Shown here in pieces: positions 2,172 to 17,456 of a DNA stretch of 64,000 nt. Position 1 is the stretch's first letter, and every line of letters begins with the position of its first letter. Under the pieces are notes generated by a model. The model was not told where the DNA came from and did not search any database. It saw only the letters and a list, made by a program, of their open reading frames with translations. The DNA comes from an uncultured virus (IMG/VR IMGVR_UViG_3300042866_001241) (taxonomy: Duplodnaviria > Heunggongvirae > Uroviricota > Caudoviricetes): IMG/VR virus record IMGVR_UViG_3300042866_001241; one strand, written 5' to 3'. The position numbers were made by a program, and so were the translations under genes.

Positions 2172-2579
2172 TTACAGTGAGATTGCGATGCTGTCCTTTC
2201 CGTTCGTCCACTTCGCAGGCTCGATGACCTCTCCGGTCGTCTCGTCCACCACCTGCTCCCCTTTCTGCATCATCACCTGTGCTGCATACTTGTGGACCTC
2301 CTGCTTCGCCTTGACCTGCTTCTCCAGGAGGGCGATGGCGGGGATGTGGGAGTAGCTGTACGTGGTGCGGCCGGGGTACTTCTTGATGGTAGCCCCGTCG
2401 ATGGTCACCTCTTGGCTGGCGTGGCGTTCTTGATGCTCCTGCACTGCGAGTTCCTTGACCGCCTCGTAGTCCTCGGTCAGCTTCTCCAGCATGCGCCGGA
2501 GAAGTACCACTGCCTGCAATGCGCTCCGGTTGCCGTTCTCAGCTTCCTGCCGAATGATCGTGCTGCTGCTGTTGCTCAT
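2172..2579 (-). CDS. Hypothetical phage protein
   Basis: 135 aa ORF in operon, ends with VDETTGEVIEPAK motif common in phage proteins. Confidence 0.7.
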   Translation of the reverse strand: MSNSSSTIIRQEAENGNRSALQAVVLLRRMLEKLTEDYEAVKELAVQEHQERHASQEVTIDGATIKKYPGRTTYSYSHIPAIALLEKQVKAKQEVHKYAAQVMMQKGEQVVDETTGEVIEPAKWTNGKDSIAISL

Positions 2580-2883
2580 GTTGCTGATTGTTGATGTGAT
2601 GGATGATGGACGGGCTGATCTTCACCTTGACCCGCTTGCGGGCAGGTATCTCGATGCTGGTGGTGAACCCGTATCCCGCTCGGCCGACCTTGGCCTTGGA
2701 CATATACGGGGTCATGGACATCAGGCCCCTGATCTCTACCTCATTGCCATGGGCAAGGGCATCGGCCAGGATTTCGGTGATGTGGTCGATGATCTTCTTG
2801 CCCATCTCCTTGGAGATGTCGTTGCGGTACGACAACTGGCGGGCAAGGTAATCTTTGGTGATCGTGGTCTTTACGGTGCTCAT
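2539..2883 (-). CDS. HU/IHF-family DNA-bending protein
   Basis: ITKDYLARQLS...ILADALAHGNEVEIRG...IEIPARKRVKVKIS follows the HU/IHF pattern. Confidence 0.85.
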   Translation of the reverse strand: MSTVKTTITKDYLARQLSYRNDISKEMGKKIIDHITEILADALAHGNEVEIRGLMSMTPYMSKAKVGRAGYGFTTSIEIPARKRVKVKISPSIIHHINNQQHEQQQQHDHSAGS

Positions 2884-2886: not shown

Positions 2887-3705
2887 TCAGAAGGGGAGAT
2901 CGCTTGGGTCTTCTTCCTCCATGCCGGCACCGTCGAACGGGTTGTCGTCTGCGATGGCTGCTGCCGTCTGCAATGCCTGCTGCACGTTTGCCGGAACGGT
3001 GCTTGTCTGATGCACCGGCTGCTGGGTGGGCACCGGGGCGGGCACGGCTGCGTTCGCGGCGTTGATGTTCTTGTACAGCACAGCGATACCGTTCTCGTTC
3101 AGGTAGCGGTCACGGTCGAGGAATGTCCACACATCCTTGCCGTCCACCGGGTTGACCACCTTCTTGCCCGGAGGCAGGCCACCATTGCCGTTCACATCGT
3201 TCTTCCAGTTGTTCTCCTTGGTCCAGTGCCGACCAACGTTCTGCCCACCCTGCACAGGCATCAACAGGTTGTTGATCTTGCCGGTCTTCTCGTCCTTGAT
3301 GGAATAGGGCTTGAGCTTGACGACCTTGGAGGGGTCGATGTTGGGAGCACGCATGGCGAAGTCCACCCAATATCGGTCGCCCTTCTGCACGGTGACGATG
3401 GCGGTGCCGCTCTCGTCCTGGATGGTGATCTCCATCACCTCGTCGATGCGGTTGCCTAGACGCGGATACTCCACGTACTCGATGTTGGTGATGCGACCGG
3501 AAACGTAGTCGTAGTGTGCGTGCCACACCTCGTTGCCGTTCTTGTCCACCACTGGCGCTCCGTCATTGCGGAATGCCTGCACTGCTCCGGGTGTTCCCTT
3601 GGGAACCTTCATGCCGAAGACCGCCTTCTCTCGACCCTGCTGGTCCCGACCCTTGCGGATGGAGAAATAGGTCTTGTAGGTTCTCTCTTCTTGTCCGTAT
3701 GCCAT
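2887..3705 (-). CDS. Putative single-stranded DNA-binding protein
   Basis: 272 aa, beta-rich core, P/Q/A linker, acidic tail ending EEEDPSDLPF. Confidence 0.6.
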   Translation of the reverse strand: MAYGQEERTYKTYFSIRKGRDQQGREKAVFGMKVPKGTPGAVQAFRNDGAPVVDKNGNEVWHAHYDYVSGRITNIEYVEYPRLGNRIDEVMEITIQDESGTAIVTVQKGDRYWVDFAMRAPNIDPSKVVKLKPYSIKDEKTGKINNLLMPVQGGQNVGRHWTKENNWKNDVNGNGGLPPGKKVVNPVDGKDVWTFLDRDRYLNENGIAVLYKNINAANAAVPAPVPTQQPVHQTSTVPANVQQALQTAAAIADDNPFDGAGMEEEDPSDLPF

Positions 3706-3723
3706 CGTTGTTGGGTTGTTGGG

Positions 3724-4125
3724 TTAGTCCTTACGGTTGATGTGTGCTTCCATGGACTTCGCTGCCAGCTTCAGGGTCACGGCGTAGTCCTTCACCGGCT
3801 TGCCTGCCCACTGAGGGTCGCGCTGCATCAGCGTGTCCGCCATCTTCAGTGCCTCGATGCGTACGTAGGCCGTGTCCCTGTCGGTGACAGCATCTGCCGG
3901 GGCGTGGTGGATGCGGGCGATGCCGTTCTTGGTGAAGGTGGCGTAGTAGGCGTACTCCTTGCCGACCTCCCACGGAAGCGGGTCTGCTTCCGGGTGCCAG
4001 ACCATGCCTCGTCCCCCATCGCTGAAGGCAAGCATGTATCCTTGGATCTTCTTGGTCTTGTCCGCTGCCATGAACGGCTCTCCGTCCTTGACCACTTCAG
4101 TACAGGTGCCCTTGTTCGTTGTCAT
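3724..4125 (-). CDS. Hypothetical protein
   Basis: 133 aa ORF in the minus-strand operon. Confidence 0.65.
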   Translation of the reverse strand: MTTNKGTCTEVVKDGEPFMAADKTKKIQGYMLAFSDGGRGMVWHPEADPLPWEVGKEYAYYATFTKNGIARIHHAPADAVTDRDTAYVRIEALKMADTLMQRDPQWAGKPVKDYAVTLKLAAKSMEAHINRKD

Positions 4126-4420
4126 CGTGGTAGTTATTGTTGCTGTTGGGTTCGACGCCTGCTGACAGTAGCAGGCCGGTAAGTTCGAGGTTCGGTCGCT
4201 TGCTGTAAGCGAGTTCGAGCGCGTGGTTGTACTTGTCCAGTAGCTTGATCACCGACCGGAGCAACTGGCTTTCCGCTTCGTCCACCTGGGCCTGCATGAC
4301 CCTTGCGAGGGTAGGAGTGTCGGCACCTTCAAGGATGCTCTCCCTGATCGTTCGGTGAGATGCGTTGATCGCGTCCACCGTCTCCTGCTTGAGCAGGACT
4401 TGCTTGTTGCTGTTGTTCAT
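4097..4420 (-). CDS. Hypothetical protein
   Basis: 107 aa ORF with ACAGCA-type leader. Confidence 0.6.
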   Translation of the reverse strand: MNNSNKQVLLKQETVDAINASHRTIRESILEGADTPTLARVMQAQVDEAESQLLRSVIKLLDKYNHALELAYSKRPNLELTGLLLSAGVEPNSNNNYHDDNEQGHLY

Positions 4421-4562
4421 GGCGTTGCTGTGCTTTGATCATACATGGGGTCTTGCCCTGGAGGTAGGCTTGGCGGAAGAGAGCTTCATTGCGCTCGTCC
4501 ATTGTCTTGTGCCACCTTCGCTCCTCTTGAAGGGCAAGAAAGTACCGTCCTGATGCTGACAT
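4329..4562 (-). CDS. Hypothetical protein
   Basis: ATG just downstream of the promoter at 4582-4589. Overlaps the next gene. Confidence 0.45.
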   Translation of the reverse strand: MSASGRYFLALQEERRWHKTMDERNEALFRQAYLQGKTPCMIKAQQRHEQQQQASPAQAGDGGRDQRISPNDQGEHP

Positions 4563-4581
4563 TGTGCTGCTGTTGTGGCCT

Positions 4582-4589
4582 CAAAAGTA
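4582..4589 (-). promoter_or_regulatory. Bacteroidota -7 promoter box
   Basis: TACTTTTG on minus strand (TAnnTTTG), 20 nt before an ATG. Confidence 0.7.
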
Positions 4590-4624
4590 GTTACTTATGT
4601 GCGTCTCCGAACACCTGTTGAAAA

Positions 4625-4759
4625 CTATTCGTACAGGATGTGGGTGATGTACAGTATGGCTACCACTATCGTGGCTGAAGTGAGAGTTGCGGTCACGTAC
4701 TGGATGACCCACGGGCTGTCGTTGAGCAGCCAGGTGTATGCCCGGTAGATGGTTCTCAT
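4625..4759 (-). CDS. Small membrane protein (44 aa)
   Basis: MRTIYRAYTWLLNDSPWVIQYVTATLTSATIVVAILYITHILYE, one hydrophobic segment. Confidence 0.55.
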   Translation of the reverse strand: MRTIYRAYTWLLNDSPWVIQYVTATLTSATIVVAILYITHILYE

Positions 4760-4760
4760 G

Positions 4761-4874
4761 TTACTGGTATCTGCGCGGGCAAAGGAATGGCCCAAGCGCG
4801 TTGTTGATGCGTTGCTCGACGTGCCTCAGCCATGCACAGGCAGCGCCGAAGAGTATGCGAATGGTGAATGTCAT
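4761..4874 (-). CDS. Small hypothetical protein (37 aa)
   Basis: MTFTIRILFG..., abuts the next gene, ACAGCA leader. Confidence 0.45.
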   Translation of the reverse strand: MTFTIRILFGAACAWLRHVEQRINNALGPFLCPRRYQ

Positions 4875-4911
4875 GCGTTTGCTGTCGTTTGTAACCGTTT
4901 GTTGGACGGTA

Positions 4912-4938
4912 GTTGGGTTTATTTCGTAGTTAAGCCAC
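4912..4938 (+). other. attI-like recombination junction at the start of the cassette array
   Basis: GTTGGGTTTATTTCGTAG^TTAAGCCAC. Core GTT has no hairpin on its left. GTTAAGCCAC matches the rc of cassette 1 inverse core GTGGCCTAAC at 9/10. Confidence 0.6.
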
Positions 4939-5151
4939 ATTCGGAGGACTTGGAATATTCGTCCAGAACACAGGAGGCCAGCCCGTCCATGGATCAAGGT
5001 CGTCGTTGTCGAAGTACATGCCATCTTCATAGTACCCGACCTTGTACCAGTAGCCTCTTCGCTTATCGTTGTATGCGTACCCGGCAAAAAGCACCTCGGT
5101 CTTATCGGGTGGATTGCAGTCCACCATCTCTGTCCATTTTTCAGACTCCAT
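4930..5151 (-). CDS. Cassette 1: DUF551-like phage protein
   Basis: W...NPPDKTEVL...VGYY...FWTNIPSPP pattern. TAA lies in the core site. Confidence 0.7.
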   Translation of the reverse strand: MESEKWTEMVDCNPPDKTEVLFAGYAYNDKRRGYWYKVGYYEDGMYFDNDDLDPWTGWPPVFWTNIPSPPNVA

Positions 5152-5179
5152 GACTTTTGACTTTGAAGATTAAGAGAAC

Positions 5180-5248
5180 GTGGCCTAACTACAGCTTGCC
5201 GCCATGCAAATTGCACCGCACGGCGTCAAGCAATGTCCGTTACCCGCC
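5180..5248 (+). repeat. attC-like site 1
   Basis: GTGGCCTAAC taca GCTTGCCGCC ... GGCGTCAAGC aatgtcc GTTACCCGCC. Confidence 0.9.
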
Positions 5249-5533
5249 ATGTGAAGACTGCCACCGCTTGAACTTACGAACGGCGTTGCGATCGTTGATG
5301 GCGAAGCACTCGAACACCGTCTCTGACTTCAGCATTCGTTCACTGGAAAATTCGCCATTGGCCTTGAACCAATATGTCTTGCATCCGGCAGGTGGCCGCT
5401 CCTCTCGCTTCGGCGGCGGCCATACCTGCCGGGCCTCGTCGCCACGGCCAGTGAACATCATGCTTTCGCCGGGTGCCATGGCCATTGCCAGTGCCGCCAT
5501 CATCATCGCGTTGCCTTTCATCTTCGGGTTCAT
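5240..5533 (-). CDS. Cassette 2: hypothetical protein
   Basis: 97 aa, flanked by GTTACCCGCC / GGCGGGTAAC. Confidence 0.75.
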   Translation of the reverse strand: MNPKMKGNAMMMAALAMAMAPGESMMFTGRGDEARQVWPPPKREERPPAGCKTYWFKANGEFSSERMLKSETVFECFAINDRNAVRKFKRWQSSHGG

Positions 5534-5560
5534 GCTGGTAGCTTTAAGAGTTAAGAAAAC

Positions 5561-5631
5561 GGCGGGTAACTACAGCTTGCCGCAAGGCCAAATTGCACTG
5601 GCCCAGCGTCAAGCAATGTCCGTTATGCGGG
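5561..5631 (+). repeat. attC-like site 2
   Basis: GGCGGGTAAC taca GCTTGCCGC aa GGCCA...TGGCC ca GCGTCAAGC aatgtcc GTTATGCGGG. Confidence 0.9.
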
Positions 5632-5931
5632 ATCGAGAACAATGCCATACTTGTCGGCCACTACCTGAATAGCCAACTCCAAACCCACTTGAGGCGGCCC
5701 TGTTTCTCGTAAGAACGCAGCCTCCTTCTTCATCCACTGAAGCGCCCACTTCAAGTCGTCGTTCTTGTTCTTTTCCATCGCCGTCACTTCGCTCTCAGTG
5801 AATACTCGCTCGTGCTTGTCGTCGTGGATCACCAACGTAGCTGGGATGCCTCCGCTTTCTTCGCTGGTGAAGTTGGGCTTGTTCGAGGCCGTAGGCCAGT
5901 CTGTACTACCGTTGATCTTCGCTTGTGCCAT
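5623..5931 (-). CDS. Cassette 3: hypothetical protein
   Basis: 102 aa, flanked by GTTATGCGGG / CCCGCATAAC. Confidence 0.75.
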   Translation of the reverse strand: MAQAKINGSTDWPTASNKPNFTSEESGGIPATLVIHDDKHERVFTESEVTAMEKNKNDDLKWALQWMKKEAAFLRETGPPQVGLELAIQVVADKYGIVLDPA

Positions 5932-5981
5932 GTTGTGCGCGTTTAACCGTGTAACCTATTGACCTTCTGAAAGAGAACGAC

Positions 5982-6046
5982 CCCGCATAACAGTCGGGTT
6001 GCCGTTATTGAATGCACAACGGCAACCCGCCGAACCGTTGTATGCA
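5982..6046 (+). repeat. attC-like site 3
   Basis: CCCGCATAAC agt CGGGTTGCCGTT ... AACGGCAACCCG ccgaacc GTTGTATGCA. Confidence 0.9.
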
Positions 6047-6061
6047 AGCGAAAAGACAGAC

Positions 6062-6230
6062 GTTCGTGGTGTTGGTGGGGTTACCGTTGCCGGCAACAGG
6101 ATCGCTAAATCCTTCTGGTGCATATTGTCCTATGTCGGGTAGCTGTTCCGCGTCCTCTCGAACGCGGCCCTTTTGTGATTCTGCACCATGCGGCTTCCTC
6201 TTCGGCGTGCCGCCCACCAACACCAAGAAC
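6062..6230 (-). ncRNA. Cassette 4: ORF-less cassette, candidate structured RNA
   Basis: 18 bp terminal inverted repeat (6062-6079 vs 6213-6230, one mismatch) encloses several helices, including CCGCGTTC-GAGA-GGACGCGG on the minus strand. No credible ORF. Confidence 0.55.
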
Positions 6231-6242
6231 TCAAAGAACGCC

Positions 6243-6324
6243 TGCATACAACTACGTGTTGTCGCAACCTTCCCGCCCCGCAAATCTAACGCACGGCAGC
6301 GGCAACACTTGTCCGTTGTGCCCA
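6243..6324 (+). repeat. attC-like site 4
   Basis: TGCATACAAC tac GTGTTGTCGC ... GCGGCAACAC ttgtcc GTTGTGCCCA. Confidence 0.9.
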
Positions 6325-6330
6325 ATGCAA

Positions 6331-6558
6331 TTACAACCACTCCCCCTCGAACACCATCCCGCCACAGACCTGACCGTCCACACGGTGAAGCCTTGGGTAT
6401 CGAAACGAGCCATCGCCCCCGCGTGGAACACGGCCTGTTGAAATCCAGCCGCACACCTTACACCTAATGCGAAGAGGGGCACTGGGCACAACTACAGCTT
6501 GCCGCAACTGGCCTGCGTCTGTGTCCTTTGACAGCTTATTGTTCGGTTTGGTGTTCAT
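6331..6558 (-). CDS. Cassette 5: small Cys/His protein, start codon inside the attC loop
   Basis: MNTKPNNK...QLRQAVVVPS...RCKVCG...H...VCGG, flanked by GTTGTGCCCA / TGGGCACAAC. Confidence 0.65.
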   Translation of the reverse strand: MNTKPNNKLSKDTDAGQLRQAVVVPSAPLRIRCKVCGWISTGRVPRGGDGSFRYPRLHRVDGQVCGGMVFEGEWL

Positions 6559-6617
6559 CGGTTCTATGGGTGTTTGTGAGTAGGGCCAGCAGCGGCAAGC
6601 AATGTCCGTTAGCGGTC
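6483..6617 (+). repeat. attC-like site 5 (long loop)
   Basis: TGGGCACAAC taca GCTTGCCGC aa CTGGCC ... GGCCAG ca GCGGCAAGC aatgtcc GTTAGCGGT. Confidence 0.9.
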
Positions 6618-6620
6618 ATG

Positions 6621-6842
6621 CTAAACAGACTTCCGAGAACAATCATCTTTGCAATACATTTGAATATTTGAACTGCGATATTCTTCAAGTGAAATTGTTT
6701 TAACTTGTAAATCGTATTTCATAACTTCTTTTGCAAATTCATTCTTGCTTTTAGTGTCCATTGTATGTTCAACCGCTACACGAATAGCATTATTACACTC
6801 GGGACAAACACTCATTTTAATTTTTACGTCTTTATCTTCCAT
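6621..6842 (-). CDS. Cassette 6: AT-rich CxxC-containing hypothetical protein
   Basis: 73 aa with CPEC...CKDDC, flanked by GTTAGCGGT / ACCGCTAAC. Confidence 0.75.
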   Translation of the reverse strand: MEDKDVKIKMSVCPECNNAIRVAVEHTMDTKSKNEFAKEVMKYDLQVKTISLEEYRSSNIQMYCKDDCSRKSV

Positions 6843-6866
6843 TTTACTTTGATTTGAGAAGCACGA

Positions 6867-7004
6867 ACCGCTAACAAGTGCTATACAATATGGCGGCTGA
6901 CGTGCTTCGATTAAACATTTGTTTTTAATTCAACTTTGGTGCTTCGTATTGGTCTTTTGTACTGAAAATCCGCCACATCGTATAGCACCGATACGTTCTG
7001 CGCC
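6867..7004 (+). repeat. attC-like site 6 (AT-rich, long)
   Basis: ACCGCTAAC aa GTGCTATACAATATGGCGG ... CCGCCACATCGTATAGCAC cgatac GTTCTGCGCC. Confidence 0.9.
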
Positions 7005-7010
7005 ATGCAA

Positions 7011-7268
7011 TTACAACTCACGAGCGCGGATCATCGCATCGGCCAGCCTGTAAGCATCTACTGCCAAGTGCATTTGCCAGTCTGCGTCCCACTGGTTTTT
7101 CGCGTTGGCCTGATCCGCATATTGCCTGTACACCTCTGGCATCAGCTTCGCGGCCATGTAGTCTCTCAGCGTCATGCCCGGCTCTGCATATTGTGCGCGT
7201 TCGCCGTTGTTCATCGTGCTGCTTTCTTGGACCGGAAAGGCCGATCCTCCTGTGTTCGTTGTGCTCAT
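7011..7268 (-). CDS. Cassette 7: widespread small phage protein (GGxAFP...GMTLRDY family)
   Basis: TGGSAFPV...GMTLRDYMAAK...AYRLADAMIRAR. Confidence 0.8.
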   Translation of the reverse strand: MSTTNTGGSAFPVQESSTMNNGERAQYAEPGMTLRDYMAAKLMPEVYRQYADQANAKNQWDADWQMHLAVDAYRLADAMIRAREL

Positions 7269-7317
7269 CGTTGTTTGTGTTACTTGTTCAACTTACTGAC
7301 CTACCGAAAAAGAGCAC

Positions 7318-7380
7318 GGCGCAGAACAGCGTGGTTGGCGGCATTGAAACGACCGCCAACCGCGCGGATCGTTAGGCCAC
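7318..7380 (+). repeat. attC-like site 7
   Basis: GGCGCAGAAC a GCGTGGTTGGCGG ... CCGCCAACCGCGC ggatc GTTAGGCCAC. Confidence 0.9.
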
Positions 7381-7608
7381 ATTCAATGCCGACTTGTGAC
7401 GCCACGCAGCATCTCGTACATCTCCGGCCCAATGACCACTATCCGCACACCATAGGTTAATTGTCCCGGCATCTCGAATTTCCTTGGTCTGTGCCATTTT
7501 TGCAGCAAAGCACTTGAATCCGCACTCAGGACACATCGGGATCATATCAGCTGCTTTCATTGCGCTTAAAAAGTCTTCCGTCGATTTGCTCAGTTTATAT
7601 TCATCCAT
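7372..7608 (-). CDS. Cassette 8: zinc-ribbon-like hypothetical protein
   Basis: CPECG...WCADSGHW, TAA in core site, flanked by GTTAGGCCAC / GTGGCCTAAC. Confidence 0.75.
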   Translation of the reverse strand: MDEYKLSKSTEDFLSAMKAADMIPMCPECGFKCFAAKMAQTKEIRDAGTINLWCADSGHWAGDVRDAAWRHKSALNVA

Positions 7609-7637
7609 GACCTTTTGATTTGAAAGTTAAAGAGAAC

Positions 7638-7700
7638 GTGGCCTAACTACGTGTATACGCCACCCAGAGCGGCGGCGCATACACTTGTTCGTTATACGCA
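7638..7700 (+). repeat. attC-like site 8
   Basis: GTGGCCTAAC tac GTGTATACGCC ... GGCGCATACAC ttgttc GTTATACGCA. Confidence 0.9.
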
Positions 7701-7703
7701 ACC

Positions 7704-7943
7704 TTAGTAACCCGCATTGACACGAATTGCAGTTGCTTCATAAATTAATCGTTCACGAATAAATCCATCAACGAAATAATCTCTACATTGGTCTAATACC
7801 CATAATTGGTCATCTTCTGACCATTCGGCAGCATCCATAAAAGCAAGAAAGCTATCTACGATTATTTCTGCTTGGTGTTCGTCTTTTGCCCACTCGATTA
7901 ATTTATCAGTAAGCGTTTGTCTTAGTTGTGATAATTGACTCAT
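7704..7943 (-). CDS. Cassette 9: AT-rich acidic hypothetical protein
   Basis: 79 aa, flanked by GTTATACGCA / TGCGTATAAC. Confidence 0.75.
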   Translation of the reverse strand: MSQLSQLRQTLTDKLIEWAKDEHQAEIIVDSFLAFMDAAEWSEDDQLWVLDQCRDYFVDGFIRERLIYEATAIRVNAGY

Positions 7944-7953
7944 AATAAAAGGC

Positions 7954-8055
7954 TGCGTATAACAGCGTGTTTATGCAAGCGGGCGGACAGCTTGCGGTTA
8001 ATATTTAAGTTCGTGTTATGCCCGCCTGACATAAACACGCAAAACGTTCTGCGCC
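7954..8055 (+). repeat. attC-like site 9
   Basis: TGCGTATAAC a GCGTGTTTATGCAAGCGGGC ... GCCCGCCTGACATAAACACGC aaaac GTTCTGCGCC. Confidence 0.9.
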
Positions 8056-8061
8056 ATGCAA

Positions 8062-8295
8062 TTACGACAGAAGCTCTCGGCGGATCTCCACTTCCATCGC
8101 TTCGAGAATTGGTATCAGTTGCCCGACCACTTCAGGCGGGCACTTGAAACACTGGCCCGTGCGGTTTACGCGGGCGGTGTAGTGTTCGGTCCAGTATTTC
8201 TTCGGCTTCCAGAACTCCCACCACTTTCGTGTGTGATCGAGCCTCGTGCAAGTGATGGTCACGAGGTTGTACATGTCTATGATCTTGTTGCTCAT
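8062..8295 (-). CDS. Cassette 10: hypothetical protein
   Basis: 77 aa with KWWEFWK motif, flanked by GTTCTGCGCC / GGCGCAGAAC. Confidence 0.75.
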   Translation of the reverse strand: MSNKIIDMYNLVTITCTRLDHTRKWWEFWKPKKYWTEHYTARVNRTGQCFKCPPEVVGQLIPILEAMEVEIRRELLS

Positions 8296-8348
8296 CTGCT
8301 GGGTTTTACGAGTTTAACCTTGTCACCTACTGACCGAAGAAAAAGCAC

Positions 8349-8427
8349 GGCGCAGAACCACCGCTATACGGCATGCCCGCAGCACGGGCCGACGCTTCGC
8401 ACGCCGCATAGCTCTGTCCGTTACCCC
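8349..8427 (+). repeat. attC-like site 10
   Basis: GGCGCAGAAC cacc GCTATACGGC ... GCCGCATAGC tctgtcc GTTACCCC. Confidence 0.85.
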
Positions 8428-8864
8428 GCCATTTCCTTTTCAGAAGAGAGTGTTGCTACTTCTTCTGCCAGTGTCGTCATGTCGTACACCAGCATCTTGA
8501 TACTGGACTCAAGGCTGCTGATTTTCGCCTCCAGGTCGGTCAGTGTCCCTTCATCCTCCTCGGTCTTTGCTGCCTCCATCTTTGCTATCTGCACCTTGTC
8601 GGCCGGAAGGACGGCTGCGACGAATGCCCGTAGCCCTACTTCTGGAGCCTTGGCGTCAACGGGAACGATACCTACTCCCACCAACTCCAGCATCTTGATG
8701 ACCGATGACAAGGTAACACGGGACTCGGGATCGTAGAAACTGGCGATGACCTTGTTCTGATGGTGGGAAGTGGGTCCGATGCGTCCCGATATGTACGACC
8801 TGGATACCTTCTCTCGGATACGTGCGTCCTCGAAAGTCTTGATAATGGCAAGGCGTGGGTTCAT
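8421..8864 (-). CDS. Putative XRE-like HTH regulator with C-terminal coiled coil
   Basis: MNPRL...ARIREKVSRSYISGRIG...VTLSSVIKMLELVG resembles an HTH. Promoter box upstream. Stop overlaps the last GTT core. Confidence 0.55.
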   Translation of the reverse strand: MNPRLAIIKTFEDARIREKVSRSYISGRIGPTSHHQNKVIASFYDPESRVTLSSVIKMLELVGVGIVPVDAKAPEVGLRAFVAAVLPADKVQIAKMEAAKTEEDEGTLTDLEAKISSLESSIKMLVYDMTTLAEEVATLSSEKEMAG

Positions 8865-8953
8865 GGGTATGTGTTGGTGTAAAGCAGAAACGGCGGGATC
8901 AGTGAAGACCCCGCCGTTCGGACAGCAACAGGCGCACAGCAATACGCCGGGGT

Positions 8954-8961
8954 CAAATGTA
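8954..8961 (-). promoter_or_regulatory. Bacteroidota -7 box upstream of the regulator and cassette array
   Basis: TACATTTG on minus strand. Confidence 0.65.
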
Positions 8962-8974
8962 AGGAAGGAATTGG

Positions 8975-9292
8975 TTACTCGGTGCTCAGCTTGGCGGATT
9001 GTTGAAGGATTGAGCGGATGTGTGGCGGGGCTGCTGTGATGTCCGGCCATGAAAAAGCGATGCTGCGCTTCAGGGTATCTCCTTCGATGAACGCTTTGTT
9101 GGTGCGCGTGAATGTGTCAGTTCCACGGGCGCTGTGCTTCCTGAAGTAGCCCTTCTTTGCAGCCCGTTTCCAGTGATCACGAGCATTGTCGTATCTCCAC
9201 TGCCAGGTCAACGTGTACTGTTCTCCGGGCTTCATGCGGCACATGACCTCAAGATGGTTGGTTCCGTGCTCGTGCTTTCGCTTGTACCTCAT
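8975..9292 (-). CDS. Basic hypothetical protein
   Basis: 105 aa ORF in operon. Confidence 0.55.
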   Translation of the reverse strand: MRYKRKHEHGTNHLEVMCRMKPGEQYTLTWQWRYDNARDHWKRAAKKGYFRKHSARGTDTFTRTNKAFIEGDTLKRSIAFSWPDITAAPPHIRSILQQSAKLSTE

Positions 9293-9295
9293 GGC

Positions 9296-9484
9296 TCAGT
9301 AGTCTCCTGACAGGTATTCGATGACGCACGGCTTCTCGATGTTCACCTCAGTGACCAGGATGTCCTCGGTGTGCTTCACCGTATCCTTGGCTATCTTGGT
9401 AGCTGTGCGCTTGTCCGGCGCTGCAATGACAAGGCAGCATCCGACCGGGAACATAGGCTTGAAATCAACCTTGTAAATCTTCAT
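9296..9484 (-). CDS. Hypothetical protein
   Basis: MKIYKVDF..., ATGA overlap. Confidence 0.65.
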   Translation of the reverse strand: MKIYKVDFKPMFPVGCCLVIAAPDKRTATKIAKDTVKHTEDILVTEVNIEKPCVIEYLSGDY

Positions 9485-9696
9485 GGCTTGGGCTTGTTTG
9501 GTTCTTTGTCGAAGTAGCGATGGAAGGTGTCGCTCGATGACATGACCAGAATGACGAGCGGATACACTATCCAGCACGTCCATGCTGGCACGCTACCCAT
9601 TCCTACCGGGTAAATCCATACCATGCCCACCCCAACTATCGCTAACGACGTGAAGGTGTACAGCATGAACAGTGCGTTGCGTACTATTTCCCTCAT
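9481..9696 (-). CDS. Two-TM membrane protein
   Basis: MREIVRNALF..., two hydrophobic helices, ATGA overlaps. Confidence 0.65.
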   Translation of the reverse strand: MREIVRNALFMLYTFTSLAIVGVGMVWIYPVGMGSVPAWTCWIVYPLVILVMSSSDTFHRYFDKEPNKPKP

Positions 9697-9989
9697 GGCT
9701 TGGGGTATTTGGCTAGGATGGCGCGGGCTTTTGCCGTGCAATCTGTGAGATTGATTACAAGAGTGTCGTTCGGCGATCGCTTTCCGGCGATGTACTCTCT
9801 AGCATCAAGTGCCGCATCGTGCAGTTCTGCAATCGCCTCCCGCAACTCATCACGCTCATCGGCGATGGGCTGGGCTACTTCGCGGATGGCGGCGGCGTAA
9901 GCGTCCTCTATTTCCCAATAATTGCGATACGCGGGGCCGATTGTAAACCGCTTCGCGGCCAACCCATCAGCGTTCAGTTTGGTGCTCAT
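9693..9989 (-). CDS. Hypothetical protein
   Basis: MSTKLNADG..., ATGA overlaps. Confidence 0.65.
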   Translation of the reverse strand: MSTKLNADGLAAKRFTIGPAYRNYWEIEDAYAAAIREVAQPIADERDELREAIAELHDAALDAREYIAGKRSPNDTLVINLTDCTAKARAILAKYPKP

Positions 9990-10273
9990 GCTGCGATATG
10001 GATGGGTTTCTTGCGAAGGACTTTCAGCTTGTATCCCCGGCACGTCAGTTCGTGGTACAAATCTTCGTACTCATGCTCCTCGGCCGGTCGGGTGGCTGCG
10101 ATGGTGCCTGTGTAGTCTGCTTCGCCGTGCTGTCCGACGTGCTGGTAGGACTGAACGAAGCCTCGGTTGGCATCACCGGACTCGTAATTGAGGCCGGGGA
10201 ACAGGGCGATCACGTTTCCTCCGTCCTTGTATACCCGGAAGATGACAAGGGTTTCGTGGGTGTCGGGTGTCAT
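9986..10273 (-). CDS. Conserved small phage protein
   Basis: VIFR...VIALFP...SYQHVGQHGEA...EYEDLYHEL..RGY motif family. Confidence 0.75.
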   Translation of the reverse strand: MTPDTHETLVIFRVYKDGGNVIALFPGLNYESGDANRGFVQSYQHVGQHGEADYTGTIAATRPAEEHEYEDLYHELTCRGYKLKVLRKKPIHIAA

Positions 10274-11110: not shown

Positions 11111-11905
11111 TTACAGTGCCGGTGCTGCCTCCCTGTATGCCTGCGGGACGTGGGATTTGATCCATGCCTTCAGGCGTGCGAAGTGCGCGTTCATGGCCTT
11201 GGTGCGCTCCTTCTGCTCCTTGGCCTTGGCGTGCTCAATGTGTGCATCGACGGCTGAACGTGCCTCCTGCACAACGTACATTTTCTCGGCCGGGTACGTC
11301 TCGGTTTCGATGAACCCCCAACAGGATCCATCTTCGATCTCGTTGCCGTCCTGGTCCTCAATGGTGAACCCGAAGATGTCGTTCCATGCCCATGCACCGT
11401 ACTCCTTGGCGTTGGCCTCCATGGACTCGTACGTGGCGTCCTTTTTCTCAACGCCAGTGGTCTTGGCGAACTCAGGTGTCCACACTACCAACAGGTCCAT
11501 GTAGTCGCCCTGGCTGTATCCTATGCTGCTGGTGTTCAGGCACGGAACGCCAAGGATTTTGCCTACTGCCTCCAACGTATCGTAGTCGTGCTCACGGATA
11601 GCGTCTCCAATGGCTTCGGTTACGGCGTTCTCCGTGTCGTTGGCCGTATCCCCTTCACCCTGGCTCACATTCAGTAGCTCCATCAGGGCCTTCTTGTGGC
11701 GTCGGTACTGGTTCGTGGTGGGATAGAACGCTGCGCTGGCATCAAGGTAGTCGTACCTGTCGTGGCGTCCACCGTCCACCATCATGGGGTACATGCCGTC
11801 ATTGTTCTCATATGGATTGAGCGATCCGCTGTCTTGGTCCTGGTGGATCTTGATGGTGAACCCTTTGTAGTCCTCCTCGTGTACTGGTTGCTGCTGGTAA
11901 CACAT
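11111..11905 (-). CDS. Conserved acidic phage early protein (GYSQGD motif)
   Basis: 264 aa, IGYSQGDY...YGAWAWNDIFGF...SCWGF, own promoter. Confidence 0.75.
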   Translation of the reverse strand: MCYQQQPVHEEDYKGFTIKIHQDQDSGSLNPYENNDGMYPMMVDGGRHDRYDYLDASAAFYPTTNQYRRHKKALMELLNVSQGEGDTANDTENAVTEAIGDAIREHDYDTLEAVGKILGVPCLNTSSIGYSQGDYMDLLVVWTPEFAKTTGVEKKDATYESMEANAKEYGAWAWNDIFGFTIEDQDGNEIEDGSCWGFIETETYPAEKMYVVQEARSAVDAHIEHAKAKEQKERTKAMNAHFARLKAWIKSHVPQAYREAAPAL

Positions 11906-11936
11906 TGTGCTGTGGTTGTTTGTTGCTGTGTTGGTG

Positions 11937-11993
11937 CAAAGGTAAGTAACTGAAACTACATAGTGTAAGTATCAGTAACTAAAGTTATTAACA
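11937..11993 (-). promoter_or_regulatory. Promoter with operator-like palindrome
   Basis: TACCTTTG (11937-11944, minus), GTAACTAAAGTTAT (11975-11988), TTATTAACA (11985-11993). Confidence 0.65.
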
Positions 11994-12175
11994 CCTGCTT
12001 TTTTGTTTCTTGCCAATTTGTAGTCCTTCAGGTACTTCAGCCATTGTGCCAAGGTCAGGTCTTCCGGCCGGTCAATGGTATTGGTCCTGGGTCTGCGTAG
12101 TGGTCCTACCCTTGCCCGGTAGTCCGCTGCCCGTTCTTCCTCCGTTGCGAAGGTGTACCTACCTGTCCTTGTCAT
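11972..12175 (-). CDS. Basic hypothetical protein
   Basis: MTRTGRY..., ACAGCA leader. Confidence 0.55.
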   Translation of the reverse strand: MTRTGRYTFATEEERAADYRARVGPLRRPRTNTIDRPEDLTLAQWLKYLKDYKLARNKKAGVNNFSY

Positions 12176-12258
12176 GTGCGGTTGCTGTTCTTGTGGGCAC
12201 CGGTGCGGGGGCCGATCCCGCTGCCTTTCGGCTGCTCCTGCCGCTCCGGTGCGGTTGC

Positions 12259-12492
12259 TCAGTTGTCCTCTACGTGTGGGGATAGCAAGCTGCAAAGTTC
12301 GCCCACGTCCCATGTGTCGGTGTACCTGTTGCGGTACTTGTCCATGTACGTTACCTGGATGTCGTCCCTGCTGGGTAGGTCGTAAATGGTGGCGATCAGT
12401 TGCTCGTGCCTGGCTGCTTCCTTGGCAAAGTGTTCGGTGTGGTGGTTGTTGCCAAGGTCAAGGGTTCCAAGGTCTATCTGGTGCGTGTTCAT
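12259..12492 (-). CDS. Hypothetical protein
   Basis: 77 aa in operon. Confidence 0.6.
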   Translation of the reverse strand: MNTHQIDLGTLDLGNNHHTEHFAKEAARHEQLIATIYDLPSRDDIQVTYMDKYRNRYTDTWDVGELCSLLSPHVEDN

Positions 12493-12498
12493 GGCTGC

Positions 12499-12699
12499 TC
12501 AGGGTTTTACTTCGGTGACAACTGCCTGTCCGTTGCGTTGGTTCCTGTGTCCTGTTGCCCGTAGGACTGCTGCTGGGTAGCTGGTGAAAGATCCGATGAA
12601 CTCTCCGCACCAACGTAGGACTAACCTTTGCTCAGGGTGTCCACAAAACTCGCGGCTGACGGTGTATCGGATGTCTGAACGGATGGGGTGCTGCTTCAT
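12499..12699 (-). CDS. Small phage protein
   Basis: MKQHP...YTVSREFCGH...VLRWCGEFIG, ATGA overlap. Confidence 0.65.
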   Translation of the reverse strand: MKQHPIRSDIRYTVSREFCGHPEQRLVLRWCGEFIGSFTSYPAAVLRATGHRNQRNGQAVVTEVKP

Positions 12700-13103
12700 G
12701 GCTGGGTTGCTTTGAGGGTCTGTCGTGCTGCGATTACTTGTGGGGGTAGGTTGTTTGGGCTTGCCCCTTCCGGCCACTGTCCGGTGCTCAATACGGCCGT
12801 TACAAGTGCCTCCAAGTTAAATAGGGCAAGGCGTAGGTCCGGGGCTTCTGCGATGAGGGACAATACGTGCGGCCGTTCGTCGTTGCTTGGACCTTTGCTC
12901 CATGTGCCGTGGGTCTGGCATACTATGCGCTCGTCGTCGCTGTATATCGTTGCTCGTTCGCCGTTGGGGTTGTTGTGCGGGTCTACCACTACATGCCATT
13001 GCTGGCACTGCATGGGCGGGTAACGGTGGTCCGCTGGTCCGGTGCTCCGGATGTCGCTGTCGGGGTCGTGGCCCATCCATTCCTGGTCTGCTGCTGCTGG
13101 CAT
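12696..13103 (-). CDS. Hypothetical phage protein
   Basis: ...LIAEAPDLRLAL..., a variant of the common phage ANARLIAAAPDLL motif. Confidence 0.6.
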   Translation of the reverse strand: MPAAADQEWMGHDPDSDIRSTGPADHRYPPMQCQQWHVVVDPHNNPNGERATIYSDDERIVCQTHGTWSKGPSNDERPHVLSLIAEAPDLRLALFNLEALVTAVLSTGQWPEGASPNNLPPQVIAARQTLKATQP

Positions 13104-13113
13104 GGCGTGTTGC

Positions 13114-13515
13114 TTATGGGTTGGTGGCTGCTTGGGCAAGGTCGTATCCTACCTGCTCTGCGATCAGGTCGCGGTGCTCCTTCCTGCCTCCGCTCACCTT
13201 CAGGTGCATGCCGTCGCCCGTGAACGTCGGTGTGACGGTTACTTTGTAGTACTCCCAGCCGTTGTAATAGCCGTTCTCGTCCATGTGGTGGAACGGGCAA
13301 AGGATCACGATCTTGTTGGGTGTGCTGTGCTCCATGTCTACTGTGCATCCGCTGTCGTATCCGGATCCATGGGGTAGGTGCTCGCGTTCGTAGTGCGCGA
13401 TCATCTGCCGTGCGTCCTGCTTGTTGGCTGTGTAGTTGGGGTGGGTGTGGTCCTTCAGGATCCATTCCATCCGCTCTACCTGGGCCGCTATTGCGGCAAT
13501 TACTGTGCTGTCCAT
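13114..13515 (-). CDS. Conserved small phage protein
   Basis: LPHGSGYDSGC...FHHMDENGYYNGW...VTPTF. Confidence 0.75.
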   Translation of the reverse strand: MDSTVIAAIAAQVERMEWILKDHTHPNYTANKQDARQMIAHYEREHLPHGSGYDSGCTVDMEHSTPNKIVILCPFHHMDENGYYNGWEYYKVTVTPTFTGDGMHLKVSGGRKEHRDLIAEQVGYDLAQAATNP

Positions 13516-13534
13516 GTGCTGTTGGTTTGTTGGG

Positions 13535-13849
13535 TTAGTTCTTGAACGGGTGCGCGTTCCCGTGGCGGTCAAATGTGCATAGCTTGTGCGGTTGTGCATC
13601 TTCGCTCCTCAGGTAGTGCGCTATTCCCTCTGCATCGAAGCAACTTTCAAAGCGTCGGATCCATGCCATACGGTCTGTCCCGGCCGCTTTGATCCAGTAT
13701 CCTCCCCTGCCGTCGTTGCATGGCTTGGCGGTGACGGTTACTCCACCAACGGTCCACGTTACGGCCGTCTTCCTGTTGTTGGGCGTGTTCCTGCCCATGG
13801 TAATTGCGTCAATTACCTGTCCCTTGGTCCAGTTGCTTGGTGCCTTCAT
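13535..13849 (-). CDS. Hypothetical protein
   Basis: 104 aa directly after a promoter. Confidence 0.65.
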   Translation of the reverse strand: MKAPSNWTKGQVIDAITMGRNTPNNRKTAVTWTVGGVTVTAKPCNDGRGGYWIKAAGTDRMAWIRRFESCFDAEGIAHYLRSEDAQPHKLCTFDRHGNAHPFKN

Positions 13850-13877
13850 GTCTGCTGCTGTTAAGTTGCTGTACTGG

Positions 13878-13914
13878 CAAATGTAACTATCTGTGTTTCA
13901 CATTTGCAAATGTG
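13878..13914 (-). promoter_or_regulatory. Full Bacteroidota promoter (-33/-7) overlapped by a 16 bp palindrome
   Basis: TTTG (13907-13910), 21 nt spacer, TACATTTG (13878-13885). CACATTTGCAAATGTG at 13899-13914. Confidence 0.75.
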
Positions 13915-13978
13915 GCTCTCGCTGCCCTATCGCTGGGCTTGGCCGGTCGTTCCGGGGCGGGGCTGTGTGCGGTTGCTT

Positions 13979-14182
13979 CTATGGCGTGTCGGGTATTATT
14001 TCAATTTTCAAGATCGACCTGGCTACGGCCGCTGGGTTGGTACCAACGTCTTCGTGTCCGTCAATGGACTGTGTGTTGGTGCGTTCCCATGCTTCTATGA
14101 TGCCCTGGGCGTCGCTGGTGGTACATTCCGCGATCAGCTCTACTTGGTCGCGGACCTGCTCGTAATAGGTGGGCGTGTACAT
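13979..14182 (-). CDS. Small acidic hypothetical protein
   Basis: MYTPTYYEQ... Confidence 0.6.
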   Translation of the reverse strand: MYTPTYYEQVRDQVELIAECTTSDAQGIIEAWERTNTQSIDGHEDVGTNPAAVARSILKIEIIPDTP

Positions 14183-14208
14183 GGTGCGGTTGTTAGTTCT
14201 GCTGCTGC

Positions 14209-14436
14209 TCAGTGTTGCGGGGTATGTGCGTACCTGTGCCACATTTCCCAGGCGCGTTGCTCCGTCAACCTGCAAAGGTCTGCAAGGGTGCTGACGGCTA
14301 TGGGTAGGGTAACTTCCGGCACGTCCCAGGCTCCGGATCTCTCCAGTGCTTCTACGGTGTCCTGGATCGCTTCGGCGGGTTCCATTGCTGCTACGTGTGC
14401 CGGCAATGTGGGGCGGGTGCTGCTGTGCGTGTTCAT
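14209..14436 (-). CDS. Hypothetical protein
   Basis: 75 aa, ACAGCAGCAC leader. Confidence 0.6.
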   Translation of the reverse strand: MNTHSSTRPTLPAHVAAMEPAEAIQDTVEALERSGAWDVPEVTLPIAVSTLADLCRLTEQRAWEMWHRYAHTPQH

Positions 14437-14477
14437 GTGCTGCTGTTCTGTTGGTTAGCTGTTGGTGTGTCTGCTGC

Positions 14478-14798
14478 CTACCTGGTGCGGCTGTGCTCGT
14501 AGTAGTACTTCATCCACGATCTCCCTCCGCTCTTCAGGTAGTGTTCCCTGGCCTTGTTCCGTGCTTCGTGTATCTCCTGTTCCCGTTTCAATAGGTCTGA
14601 ACGGGTTTCTGCGGGCCAATGGGACCATGCCGCCCCTGCAAGGTATCGCGATCCCTCCGGCACGTTGGTCTTTTTCCAGGGCGGTCCTCCTCCATGCCGT
14701 GCTGTTGCTTCGTCGTGCATGGCGTTCCATATGTCGGTCAATGCGTCGGCCTTGCGTGTGTATGCTTCGGCTAACTTGCGGTGGGTGCTTTTGTCCAT
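14478..14798 (-). CDS. Hypothetical protein
   Basis: 106 aa, ACAGCA leader. Confidence 0.6.
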   Translation of the reverse strand: MDKSTHRKLAEAYTRKADALTDIWNAMHDEATARHGGGPPWKKTNVPEGSRYLAGAAWSHWPAETRSDLLKREQEIHEARNKAREHYLKSGGRSWMKYYYEHSRTR

Positions 14799-15910: not shown

Positions 15911-15967
15911 GGCTGCTGTGTTGGTTGTTGCTGTTGCTGTTCATAGGGCGTCTGCCCCTATCGGGGG

Positions 15968-16026
15968 CGAATATATAGCGCGATAACTTAAGTTACTACG
16001 CACTGTGCAAAAAATAGTTATGAACA
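15968..16026 (-). promoter_or_regulatory. Early-region promoter with operator-like palindrome
   Basis: TATATTCG (-7 variant, 15968-15975), ATAACTTAAGTTAC (15983-15996), TTATGAACA (16018-16026). Confidence 0.6.
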
Positions 16027-16039
16027 ATAGTCCGTTCAC

Positions 16040-16790
16040 TATCCCGGCCCGCTCTCGTGACAAAACTTCCGCCCCCTGTCAAAATGTCGCCCCTACTTAA
16101 CATAATAATCAGCCGTCCGGCCGGTTAACTCGCTGGTTCTGAAGCGGTTACAAGATTATGGGCCGATATTATGTTAAGCGGCCGGCCGGCTTAGCTTTCC
16201 AACGGTCCGACCGGCTCCGGCCGGTGGCCGGTCGGCACCTGGTCCGGCCTAATGGCCTGACGATCAGCCCGTCCCACTTTCACCCCTTCCGGCCCCTTCC
16301 GGCCGTAGCTGTCCAACCTTGGGCCGGTCGGCGGTGCTGTTGTGCTCCTGGTGCCGTGCTGACCTGCCCACGATCAGCGGTTCACGGCCTGCCCGGTGCC
16401 GTCCTTGCCTGTCCTGTTCTGCTGGTTTCCCTTCCGGCCGGTGAACGGTGGCCGGTTTCCTTTCAAACATGCTCCCGGCCTGCCCGGTGCCGTTGGAAAG
16501 GGGGGCCGGTGGCCTGTGCTATGATGCGCGATCGGTGGCCGTCCGTCCGTGGTCCCCTTTTCCCGTTGGCCGGTCCGTCCGGCCGGCCGGTTCCCTTTGC
16601 GCGGGGGGTGGGGGGTAGCAAATTAGGGTACAGTACCATCCCCGGTCGGTTGGTCGGCTGGATTTTGAGGGCCGGTCGGCCGGTCGGTGTGGTGGTCGGT
16701 TGGTCGGCGGGTCGGTCGGTTGGGTGGTTTTTGAGACTGGTCGGTGGGATGGTTGATTGGTCGGGCTGGCTGGGTGGTTGAAGATAGGTG
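16040..16790. repeat. Non-coding GGCC/CCGG-rich and GGTC/GGTT-rich region at the strand switch
   Basis: Dense CCGGCC/GGCCGG words, inverted repeat CTTAACATAAT (16096-16106) / ATTATGTTAAG (16168-16178), G-run at about 16603-16616. Confidence 0.7.
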
Positions 16791-16847
16791 TAAGACAAAC
16801 GGGTAGAGTGGTTTGCGGGGTGTAGATTTGCGGGAAACGGGACGGTT

Positions 16848-17234
16848 ATGGGTAGCAGCAAGGAGTTAATGGGCGTGATACGGGAGGCTTTGGAAGAGAC
16901 GCGGCGGACTGGCGACGCATTCAAGATGACAGAAGCCCTTTCCGCGCTCGACCAACTGGAGGCACAGCAGCAGCCCAAGCGGTTGACGGATGCTGAGGTT
17001 GATCGAATCGTCAACGGGCAATTCACGCGGGAAATTGCATACGCCATACAACGTGAGGCATGGTCGAGCGCCCTGCGATACGCCCGTGATAATGGCTACT
17101 TCGGCGGCTTGAGCGTGGATGATGCCGTCAAGGTCGCATATGATTGGTTTGAAGGGCCGGTTGATAATGGGCCGGGGTCAGACTATGACAAGCTGCGCGC
17201 CCGCCTAACCGCCAAACTTCGGGGCATGGGTTGA
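16848..17234 (+). CDS. Hypothetical protein
   Basis: 128 aa, TAGATTTG promoter box at 16823-16830. Confidence 0.7.
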   Translation: MGSSKELMGVIREALEETRRTGDAFKMTEALSALDQLEAQQQPKRLTDAEVDRIVNGQFTREIAYAIQREAWSSALRYARDNGYFGGLSVDDAVKVAYDWFEGPVDNGPGSDYDKLRARLTAKLRGMG

Positions 17235-17367
17235 AGGTATTGGTGAGTTCGTGGCCGCACCAAGCGACGGAGCCGGAGGTACCCCGCGCCGTCTTAGCCC
17301 CCGGAACCCAAAGTGGACAGTCGGCAGAGTGAGTGCAGCACGGGACCACGGACCACCAACACACAGC

Positions 17368-17403
17368 GCAAGCCTCGGCAGGAATGTCGGGGCTTGTTGC
17401 TTT
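17368..17403 (+). terminator. Probable intrinsic terminator
   Basis: CAAGCCTCGGCA-ggaa-TGTCGGGGCTTG followed by TTGCTTT. Confidence 0.5.
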
Positions 17404-17456
17404 GGGGCGGAAAGGCTGAGAGGGGGATTATTCTGGCGTCCTTAGGTTTGGGGGCG

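Follow-up and report, generated by a model that had tools for sequence, protein, structure and literature searches.

Evidence for an integron-type cassette array in the leftward operon of an uncultured lake-water phage

We analysed a stretch of 64,000 nucleotides (nt) from an uncultured Caudoviricetes virus (IMG/VR record IMGVR_UViG_3300042866_001241), referred to below as the window; the full contig is ~76.7 kb long, and ~12.7 kb of it lie outside the window. Positions 4929-8422 are, with high probability, an integron-type cassette array placed in a leftward operon of a lake-water phage and turned over by a recombinase, likely Xer-like, that acts at G^TT (the caret marks the crossover). Read on the plus strand, the array begins with an attI-like site (4872-4931), followed by ten cassettes, each made of TT plus a 7-nt core, cargo, its own inverse core plus AAC, a hairpin and a final G. 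Cassettes would leave as circles and be inserted by a tyrosine recombinase cutting at G^TT, an enzyme expected to read the folded hairpin and not the hairpin sequence.

Anatomy of the array

Each of the ten cassettes in 4929-8422 is bounded by GTT plus 7 nt at one end and by its own inverse core, 7 nt plus AAC, at the other; ten hairpins closed by AAC...GTT separate the cassettes. The units between the cores are 178-370 nt long, and the cassette periods, each measured from one G^TT to the next, range over 278-415 nt, in line with the units of 280-420 bp described in an earlier reading made from the DNA letters only (the sequence-only reading). All core pairs listed in that reading were found at the positions given there. 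The span of 4929..8427 that it assigned to the array was correct in that the array is real, while its right limit has to be moved, as the last GTT is located at 8420-8422.

The inverted ends are perfect over 10 nt in 8 of the 10 units; cassette 1 has one mismatch and cassette 6 is perfect over 9 nt. Perfect pairs of GTT+7 and 7+AAC placed 120-500 nt apart occur eight times in the window, all within 4901-8450 and none elsewhere, compared with a chance expectation of 0.32 on average and 2 at maximum (200 dinucleotide shuffles). In nine of the ten cassettes the complementarity continues to 14-15 nt, with position 11 making an A.C mismatch on the plus strand and a G.T wobble on the minus strand.

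Beyond GTTA/TAAC there is no match between the two cores that close a hairpin. Instead, each core pairs with the far end of its own unit, as had been claimed, and we observed such matched ends in ten units out of ten. Matched ends within a unit are to be expected because excision of a cassette in circular form, followed by its reinsertion at G^TT, would leave exactly this signature. The intervals that had been described as ten hairpins bounded by AAC...GTT (49-125 nt) all fold as DNA hairpins, with a predicted free energy (dG) of -8.2 to -21.1 kcal/mol on the plus strand, and their stem sequences are unrelated to one another. A simple stem finder detected only 6 of the 10 hairpins and missed 4.

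The features of the array and its borders are as follows; core pairs are given as core/inverse core, and ORF stands for open reading frame, with lengths in amino acids (aa).

4761..4871, minus strand: small ORF, the next gene downstream, whose leader is formed by 4872..4931
4872..4931, plus strand: attI-like docking site and left array boundary; crossover G4929^T4930; no hairpin
4930..5239, plus strand: cassette 1; cores GTTAAGCCAC/GTGGCCTAAC; attC 5187-5241; ORF 4930..5151 on the minus strand, 73 aa
5240..5622, plus strand: cassette 2; cores GTTACCCGCC/GGCGGGTAAC; attC 5568-5624; ORF 5240..5533 on the minus strand, 97 aa
5623..6037, plus strand: cassette 3; cores GTTATGCGGG/CCCGCATAAC; attC 5989-6039; ORF 5623..5931 on the minus strand, 102 aa
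6038..6315, plus strand: cassette 4; cores GTTGTATGCA/TGCATACAAC; attC 6250-6317; no ORF of at least 45 aa inside the unit
6316..6608, plus strand: cassette 5; cores GTTGTGCCCA/TGGGCACAAC; long attC 6490-6610, 121 nt; ORF 6331..6558 on the minus strand, 75 aa
6609..6995, plus strand: cassette 6; cores GTTAGCGGT/ACCGCTAAC; attC 6873-6997, 125 nt; ORF 6621..6842 on the minus strand, 73 aa
6996..7371, plus strand: cassette 7; cores GTTCTGCGCC/GGCGCAGAAC; attC 7325-7373; ORF 7011..7268 on the minus strand, 85 aa, matching phrog_2201 (E 3e-20)
7372..7691, plus strand: cassette 8; cores GTTAGGCCAC/GTGGCCTAAC; attC 7645-7693; ORF 7372..7608 on the minus strand, 78 aa
7692..8046, plus strand: cassette 9; cores GTTATACGCA/TGCGTATAAC; attC 7961-8048; ORF 7704..7943 on the minus strand, 79 aa
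8047..8420, plus strand: cassette 10; cores GTTCTGCGCC/GGCGCAGAAC; attC 8356-8422; ORF 8062..8295 on the minus strand, 77 aa
8420..9050, minus strand: right array boundary, G^TTACCCCGCC, and resident phage gene 8421..9050, stop codon TAA complementary to the TTA in GTTA

The stop codon TAA of the cassette 1 ORF falls within the core. The core of cassette 2 was found in 7 other loci, together with other hairpins and other genes. In cassette 4 a 45-aa minus-strand ORF (6130..6267) begins within the hairpin, and the ORF of cassette 5 begins in the loop of its own hairpin. The GC fraction is lower around cassette 6 (0.48 over 6001-8000). In gene sense, the leaders that follow the core are alike among unrelated cassettes (cassettes 1, 2 and 8; also cassettes 3, 7 and 10), and a trailer, TAATTGCAT, stands before the core in cassettes 5, 7 and 10. 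These common leaders and trailers could be expression signals or a trace of cassette formation.

Mobile unit and array boundaries in related contigs

Related loci, designated below by handles such as L005, were sought with several patterns. A 16-mer of hairpin 1 gave 8 matches in IMG/VR, two of them real contigs and 6 by chance, and a two-part hairpin pattern gave 21 metagenome loci with one hairpin type. A boundary pattern produced 21 matches in IMG/VR; 12 came from an unrelated phage group having neither GTT nor array, and 4 (L114, L122, L125 and L126) had cassettes at the site.

Inside the array the pattern is symmetric, therefore the assignment of hairpins to units was taken from the array ends and from relatives. 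The left array end abuts a related leader with no hairpin in the window and in L005, L009, L014, L018, L024 and L030, and the left flank ending at GTT is common to 7 contigs. At the right end, in the window and in L005, a full hairpin follows the stop codon of the resident gene; the layout of L005 is the same as that of the window, since in gene sense the upstream gene closes with TAA^C immediately ahead of the first hairpin. The right end of L023 showed neither hairpin nor inverse core. L005 contains a single cassette, whose only hairpin is on the right side. This cassette has the core and hairpin of cassette 5: identity is 91% over 145 nt across the hairpin and the unit end next to it, the remainder of the unit is unmatched and the right neighbour is different. 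Similarly, a unit in L025 that is 97% identical to cassette 1 has kept the right-hand hairpin next to a different right neighbour.

The clearest boundaries came from two IMG/VR contigs, L125 and L126, in which flanks with 99% identity enclose a different single cassette each, with its own hairpin. Their homology stops at ...CGTATATCCAACGTTA and restarts at ...TGTCCGTTGGTGGCC, so that the two contigs diverge at G^TT. Homologous units were compared in 8 pairs taken from different contigs: wherever the right neighbour differs, the right hairpin is retained (3 of 3 cases, two of them from near-identical contigs), and the left hairpin was different in 2 of 2. The start of the cassette 5 ORF in its own hairpin loop points the same way. 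As array ends, L005, the L125/L126 pair and the homologous pairs agree, we read the mobile unit on the plus strand as the unit together with its right-hand hairpin, i.e. TT-core...core-AAC-hairpin-G.

The sequence-only reading had proposed that related contigs be compared for cassette content. The comparison favoured the integron-type cassette reading that it had put forward: relatives carry different cassettes between the same flanks, and both L125 versus L126 and the window versus L005, L009, L018, L024 and L030 break at G^TT.

The left boundaries resemble each other in sequence. The motif CGTATATC stands 4-5 nt before GTT at seven phage boundaries (L005, L014, L018, L024, L030, L125 and L126) and at the attI of L085, and the bacterial attI of L029 and L031 has the near-identical CGTATACC. 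The left boundary of the window and of L009 has a variant, GGGTTTATT(T/C)CGTA-GTT. On one 5-kb metagenome contig, L024, the boundary motif and the same two cassettes occur twice (2088-2867 and 3770-4549), which may be a duplication or an assembly effect.

Cassette turnover in lake populations

All 24 of the 24 public runs that contain the array are lake-water metagenomes. We aligned contigs of four lake runs to positions 3500-10000 of the window; the lake samples are dated 2020 to 2025. A contig from X14 (2994 nt, depth 11.7) covers 6994-7369 and then 8045-10000, with cassettes 8 and 9 missing. The joint from 7369 to 8045 skips 675 nt, from the GTT at 7371 to the GTT at 8046, with a 4-nt ambiguity (CGTT) and 255 nt on the shorter side. 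In a second X14 contig, 6035 is joined to 6994 and cassettes 4-6 are missing; this joint is weaker, with 29 nt on the shorter side. Both X14 and X23 have a contig with hairpin 4 ahead of unit 2. One more X14 contig follows the left flank up to the GTT at 4929-4931 and continues into another cassette, the next 30 letters matching the start of the first cassette of L114 at 27 of 30 positions. Joints within units and stretches with no cover were also seen in the lake runs; other cassettes have unit ends in common.

Thus population contigs of the window phage lack whole cassettes, cut at GTT, in agreement with the variation in cassette content that had been predicted. Taken as sequence comparisons, these observations show cassette turnover at G^TT in wild phage populations.

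Strand polarity

In bacterial arrays beside a recombinase, 30 attC sites were examined (from L029, L031, L048, L069, L079, L081, L085 and L095), of which 22 fold as one hairpin; in 21 of these 22 the 3' spacer is longer on the ORF-sense strand. A MAFFT alignment of 28 bacterial sites gave columns inconsistent with structure. In the window the 3' spacer is longer on the plus strand in 10 hairpins out of 10. Because the plus strand of the window shares this asymmetry with the bacterial gene-sense strand, we take plus as the top strand and the crossover as canonical. A 'mirror integron', with plus as the bottom strand and the crossover at the other box, was considered and ruled out by the same asymmetry on the gene-sense strand of the recombinase-linked bacterial arrays.

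In 8 of the 10 window hairpins the fold is more stable on the minus strand, and G.T wobbles are present on that strand only; a more stable fold and G.T pairs are features reported for bottom strands (Nivina et al. 2016, PMC5027507).

The window ORFs lie on the attC bottom strand in 8 of the 10 units, the other two (cassettes 4 and 5) having no ORF of at least 45 aa inside the unit. This gene strand, opposite to that of bacterial cassettes, is a feature that the sequence-only reading did not mention. The 46 distinct perfect units of 16 other phage-type loci comprise 40 with an antisense ORF, 3 with a sense ORF and 3 with none. Bacterial arrays show the opposite: clear arrays were present in 7 of 80 bacterial loci, and 29 of their 30 perfect units carry a sense ORF. 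Phage arrays located beside a recombinase have 109 units with the ORF on the recombinase strand, 5 with the ORF on the opposite strand and 25 with no ORF; their spacer asymmetry on the gene strand is reversed with respect to the bacterial one in 67 of 71 hairpins. Given the 109 units against 5 and the 67 reversed hairpins out of 71, antisense gene polarity is general for phage arrays. With genes on the bottom strand, cassettes would therefore be transcribed with the phage operon, toward the attI-like end.

Recombinases linked to such arrays

The bacterial contig L029, one of the related loci, has genes of Bacteroidota type, among them those for a histidine kinase, PaaA and a protein sorted by the type IX secretion system. 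It encodes a 471-aa tyrosine recombinase (PF13495 + PF00589) followed by an attI (...CGTATACCCAACG^TT), a cassette with a sense ORF and a cassette with an antisense ORF. The hairpin of this second cassette is of the type used in the search and has the same 57 nt as the hairpins of four phage-type contigs (L013, L021, L027 and L030). A Flavobacteriales metagenome-assembled genome (L031) has a recombinase 100% identical to that of L029 and the same attI, with a different first cassette. At the attI of L031 a single 2.9-kb cassette (11525-14505) has matched cores and its own hairpin, and seems, by eye, to contain phage-like genes. Xer-like recombinases were seen upstream of Bacteroidota chromosomal arrays in L029 (5051-6466), L085 (10010-11152) and L048 (10052-11728), with scores under the integron-integrase cut-off and no IntI-specific insert, and some array-linked recombinases of Bacteroidota have 100-280 extra N-terminal residues.

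The L029 enzyme scored 214.9 bits on TIGR02249 (cut-off 265) and 218.2 bits on NF040815 (cut-off 220). It aligned with VchIntIA (2a3v) in two blocks, with 22 residues in the place of the 65 of the integrase. Both the L029 and L085 enzymes are below the TIGR02249 cut-off, with ~43 residues missing at the VchIntIA insert; the L085 enzyme passes NF040815 and aligns end to end with the XerC-like protein 4a8e. Array-linked enzymes also match XerA (5hxy), and their best score is with NF040815. Thus the array-linked family seems, from these alignments, to be devoid of the IntI-specific insert. The IntI-specific additional domain is described as the defining trait of integron integrases (Ghaly et al. 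2022, PMC9668308). The array appears integron-like in its working and falls short of strict integron membership, because the recombinase family linked to such arrays has no such domain.

We searched IMG/VR with the L029 enzyme; a relative was encoded in 197 of 202 candidate stretches, and arrays, counted in the best 80 loci, were present in 41. In the 9 IMG/VR loci that we examined, the last cassette is followed, at a distance of ~30-80 nt, by the start of a recombinase gene (265-275 aa) located on the gene strand. Four enzymes from phage loci were tested against the family models and all were below the cut-offs. At the corresponding place, beside the attI end of the window array, there are a 36-aa ORF and unrelated genes.

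We infer that the enzyme acting on the window array most likely belongs to this Xer-like family, which resembles integron integrases and is found beside arrays in Bacteroidota chromosomes and in many phages. It could be provided in trans by the host or by a co-infecting phage, or be encoded in the ~12.7 kb outside the window.

Weighing the explanations

Several observations weigh against an integron-type array served by a recombinase of this family. None of the 169 window ORFs matches a recombinase family in Pfam, and tblastn with ten recombinases found none in the window (best E 0.018). Five IMG/VR records that contain arrays of this hairpin family gave no PF00589 match; completeness is at least 90% for two of the five. 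As neither the window nor these five records has a recombinase, the enzyme of the window phage is a matter of conjecture, and the array is to be seen as an orphan. The candidate enzyme family is itself devoid of an insert described as necessary for integron recombination. The left boundary of the window does not have the CGTATATC motif, and only 2 of 11 GTT boxes fit the GTTRRRY consensus, a deviation of the cores that had been pointed out beforehand. The searched hairpin type had 0 matches in 185,579 species genomes. The turnover data come from assembled contigs, not from raw reads; only one of the joints, 7369 to 8045, can be rated as strong, and no circular cassette junctions were seen. PADLOC gave 0 matches for 9 proteins.

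Within the integron-type reading, a more specific version can be offered tentatively, with somewhat less than even confidence. The array would be an orphan of a large integron-like system, not described in print, of Bacteroidota phages and their hosts. The system would use an Xer-like recombinase having no IntI insert, and the cassette genes of phages would lie on the recombining bottom strand, so that phage transcription would read the cargo and expose that strand as the non-template one. In the host array the same cassettes would be silent; phages that have no such enzyme, the window phage included, would borrow it, and the cassette market would be common to hosts and to many unrelated phages.

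A phage that encodes its own recombinase, either in a part of the genome beyond these 64 kb or in an ORF that escapes recognition, would make the array a complete phage platform. The ~12.7 kb of contig outside the window, the 41 array-bearing loci among the best 80 with a Xer-like gene in IMG/VR and the large share of window ORFs with no family assignment leave room for such a gene. Against it stand the absence of a recombinase from its usual place near the attI end, the tblastn result given above and the two array-bearing records that are at least 90% complete and have no PF00589 match; on balance we regard this explanation as unlikely.

One could also think of a relic, i.e. sites acquired once from a host integron and inert by now. 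There is no integrase in the window, and the coding content of cassettes 4 and 5 (no ORF of at least 45 aa inside the former unit, a 75-aa ORF starting in the hairpin loop in the latter) could be a sign of decay. A dead array is not expected to have perfect core pairs in 8 of 10 cassettes, or to vary in cassette presence among the 2020-2025 lake samples with breakpoints at GTT, nor would near-identical phages differ by one cassette. We consider this explanation improbable.

That the hairpins are intergenic terminators or RNA processing sites, with complementarity of unit ends as a by-product, is hardly credible: they do stand between genes of one operon, and attC sites figure as possible weak terminators in work cited by Qi et al. 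2023 (PMC9892861), but terminator-like sites show no enrichment (21 found, 18.4 expected), Rfam at gathering threshold had 0 matches in the window, and both the match of the core to the far end and the G^TT breaks in relatives would be left unexplained.

Cassette cargo

None of 20 ORFs from the array and its surroundings reached the Pfam cut-off, and cassette proteins other than that of cassette 7 had no match above threshold in Pfam, PHROGs or PADLOC. Of 25 candidates for relatives of the cassette 3 protein, nine proved to be metagenomic relatives, besides the protein of the window itself. Relatives of the window phage have cassettes with N6_N4 methyltransferase genes (L009, L114 and L016); the first cassette of L114 encodes such an enzyme of 351 aa. 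The cargo would be small phage accessory proteins, and the DNA methyltransferases of relatives suggest a role in counter-defence.

Phage identity and genomic context

The window has phage genes: a portal protein at 29149-31413 (PHROG 6547, with a weak P22_portal match), an Amidase_2 lysin at 60462-61067 and a 3459-aa polyvalent protein with an ART-PolyVal domain; the majority of its ORFs have no family match. The host is probably a bacterium of Flavobacteriales or of another Bacteroidota lineage. A leftward run of small minus-strand genes starts from a non-coding region of ~900 nt (15950-16850), and the array lies inside this run; judging from this layout, a location within an early operon is plausible.

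The non-coding region at the head of the run is rich in repeats of the CCGGCC / GGTCGG type and could be a regulatory or replication region. An HU/IHF-type DNA-binding protein (2539-2883, minus strand; PF00216, E 4.9e-12; phrog_379) is encoded in the same operon ~2 kb downstream of the array and might assist recombination. Elsewhere in the window, a 748-aa protein (22210-24456, minus strand) combines a galactosyltransferase domain with a methyltransferase domain, and no relatives of the protein encoded at 11111-11905 were found in IMG/VR. Positions 17114-17216 and 17366-17410 are 100% identical to positions 8271-8373 and 8585-8629 of IMG/VR contig L006 (103 and 45 nt); beyond these identities only hairpin regions and the array boundary are common to L006 and the window.

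Comparison with known systems

The array shares with integrons the imperfect hairpins closed by AAC/GTT, the complementarity of the cassette start to its own inverse core, the crossover at G^TT, stems of variable sequence with a conserved fold and G.T pairs that favour the bottom strand. New cassettes may likewise enter at the attI-like end, where one contig has another cassette. It differs from them in several respects: the window has no intI, and the enzymes linked to such arrays elsewhere are Xer-like; window genes are on the bottom strand and face attI, whereas integron genes are on the top strand and read away from attI; window cores extend to 14-15 nt and are mostly off GTTRRRY, and the stems often have no visible bulged bases.

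The substrate of Xer enzymes is a single conserved dif-type site in double-stranded DNA. Array-linked enzymes are similar to XerA, XerC and XerD (NF040815) in their end-to-end alignment with 4a8e, but the sites in arrays are many, diverse in sequence and hairpin-shaped. Compared with the arrays found beside a Xer-like recombinase in Bacteroidota phages, the window agrees in array, polarity and boundary, and the recombinase gene is missing from the expected place.

With ten folded sites and no recombinase in 64 kb, the window falls into the class of clusters of attC sites lacking an integrase (CALINs), defined by at least two attC sites with no integrase nearby. That phages carry attC clusters is already known: a survey of sequenced isolated phages with IntegronFinder (Qi et al. 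2023, PMC9892861) yielded 17 CALINs, all of two sites or more; IntI1 recombined 5 of 6 phage sites tested in the same work. These CALINs are similar to the window array as clusters of attC sites with no integrase, in virulent phages that include a phage of Polaribacter (Bacteroidota), and in having methyltransferase cassettes. They differ in that the part of that paper on which we rely reports no attI-like site, population turnover, antisense polarity or Xer-like partner. Neither antisense phage cassettes nor array-linked recombinases devoid of the IntI insert were the subject of any paper listed by our literature search.

Significance

Integrons are regarded as gene-capture devices of bacteria, and carriage by phages has been reported only as a few short clusters of sites with no integrase. 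The family of sites described here is common to many phage contigs and to a Bacteroidota-type bacterial chromosome. If our reading is true, surveys that require the IntI domain would overlook a whole branch of the system. Phages would then have modular swapping of accessory genes of their own, possibly including counter-defence genes, and the mirrored polarity would offer a direct handle on the coupling of strand choice and expression in cassette recombination.

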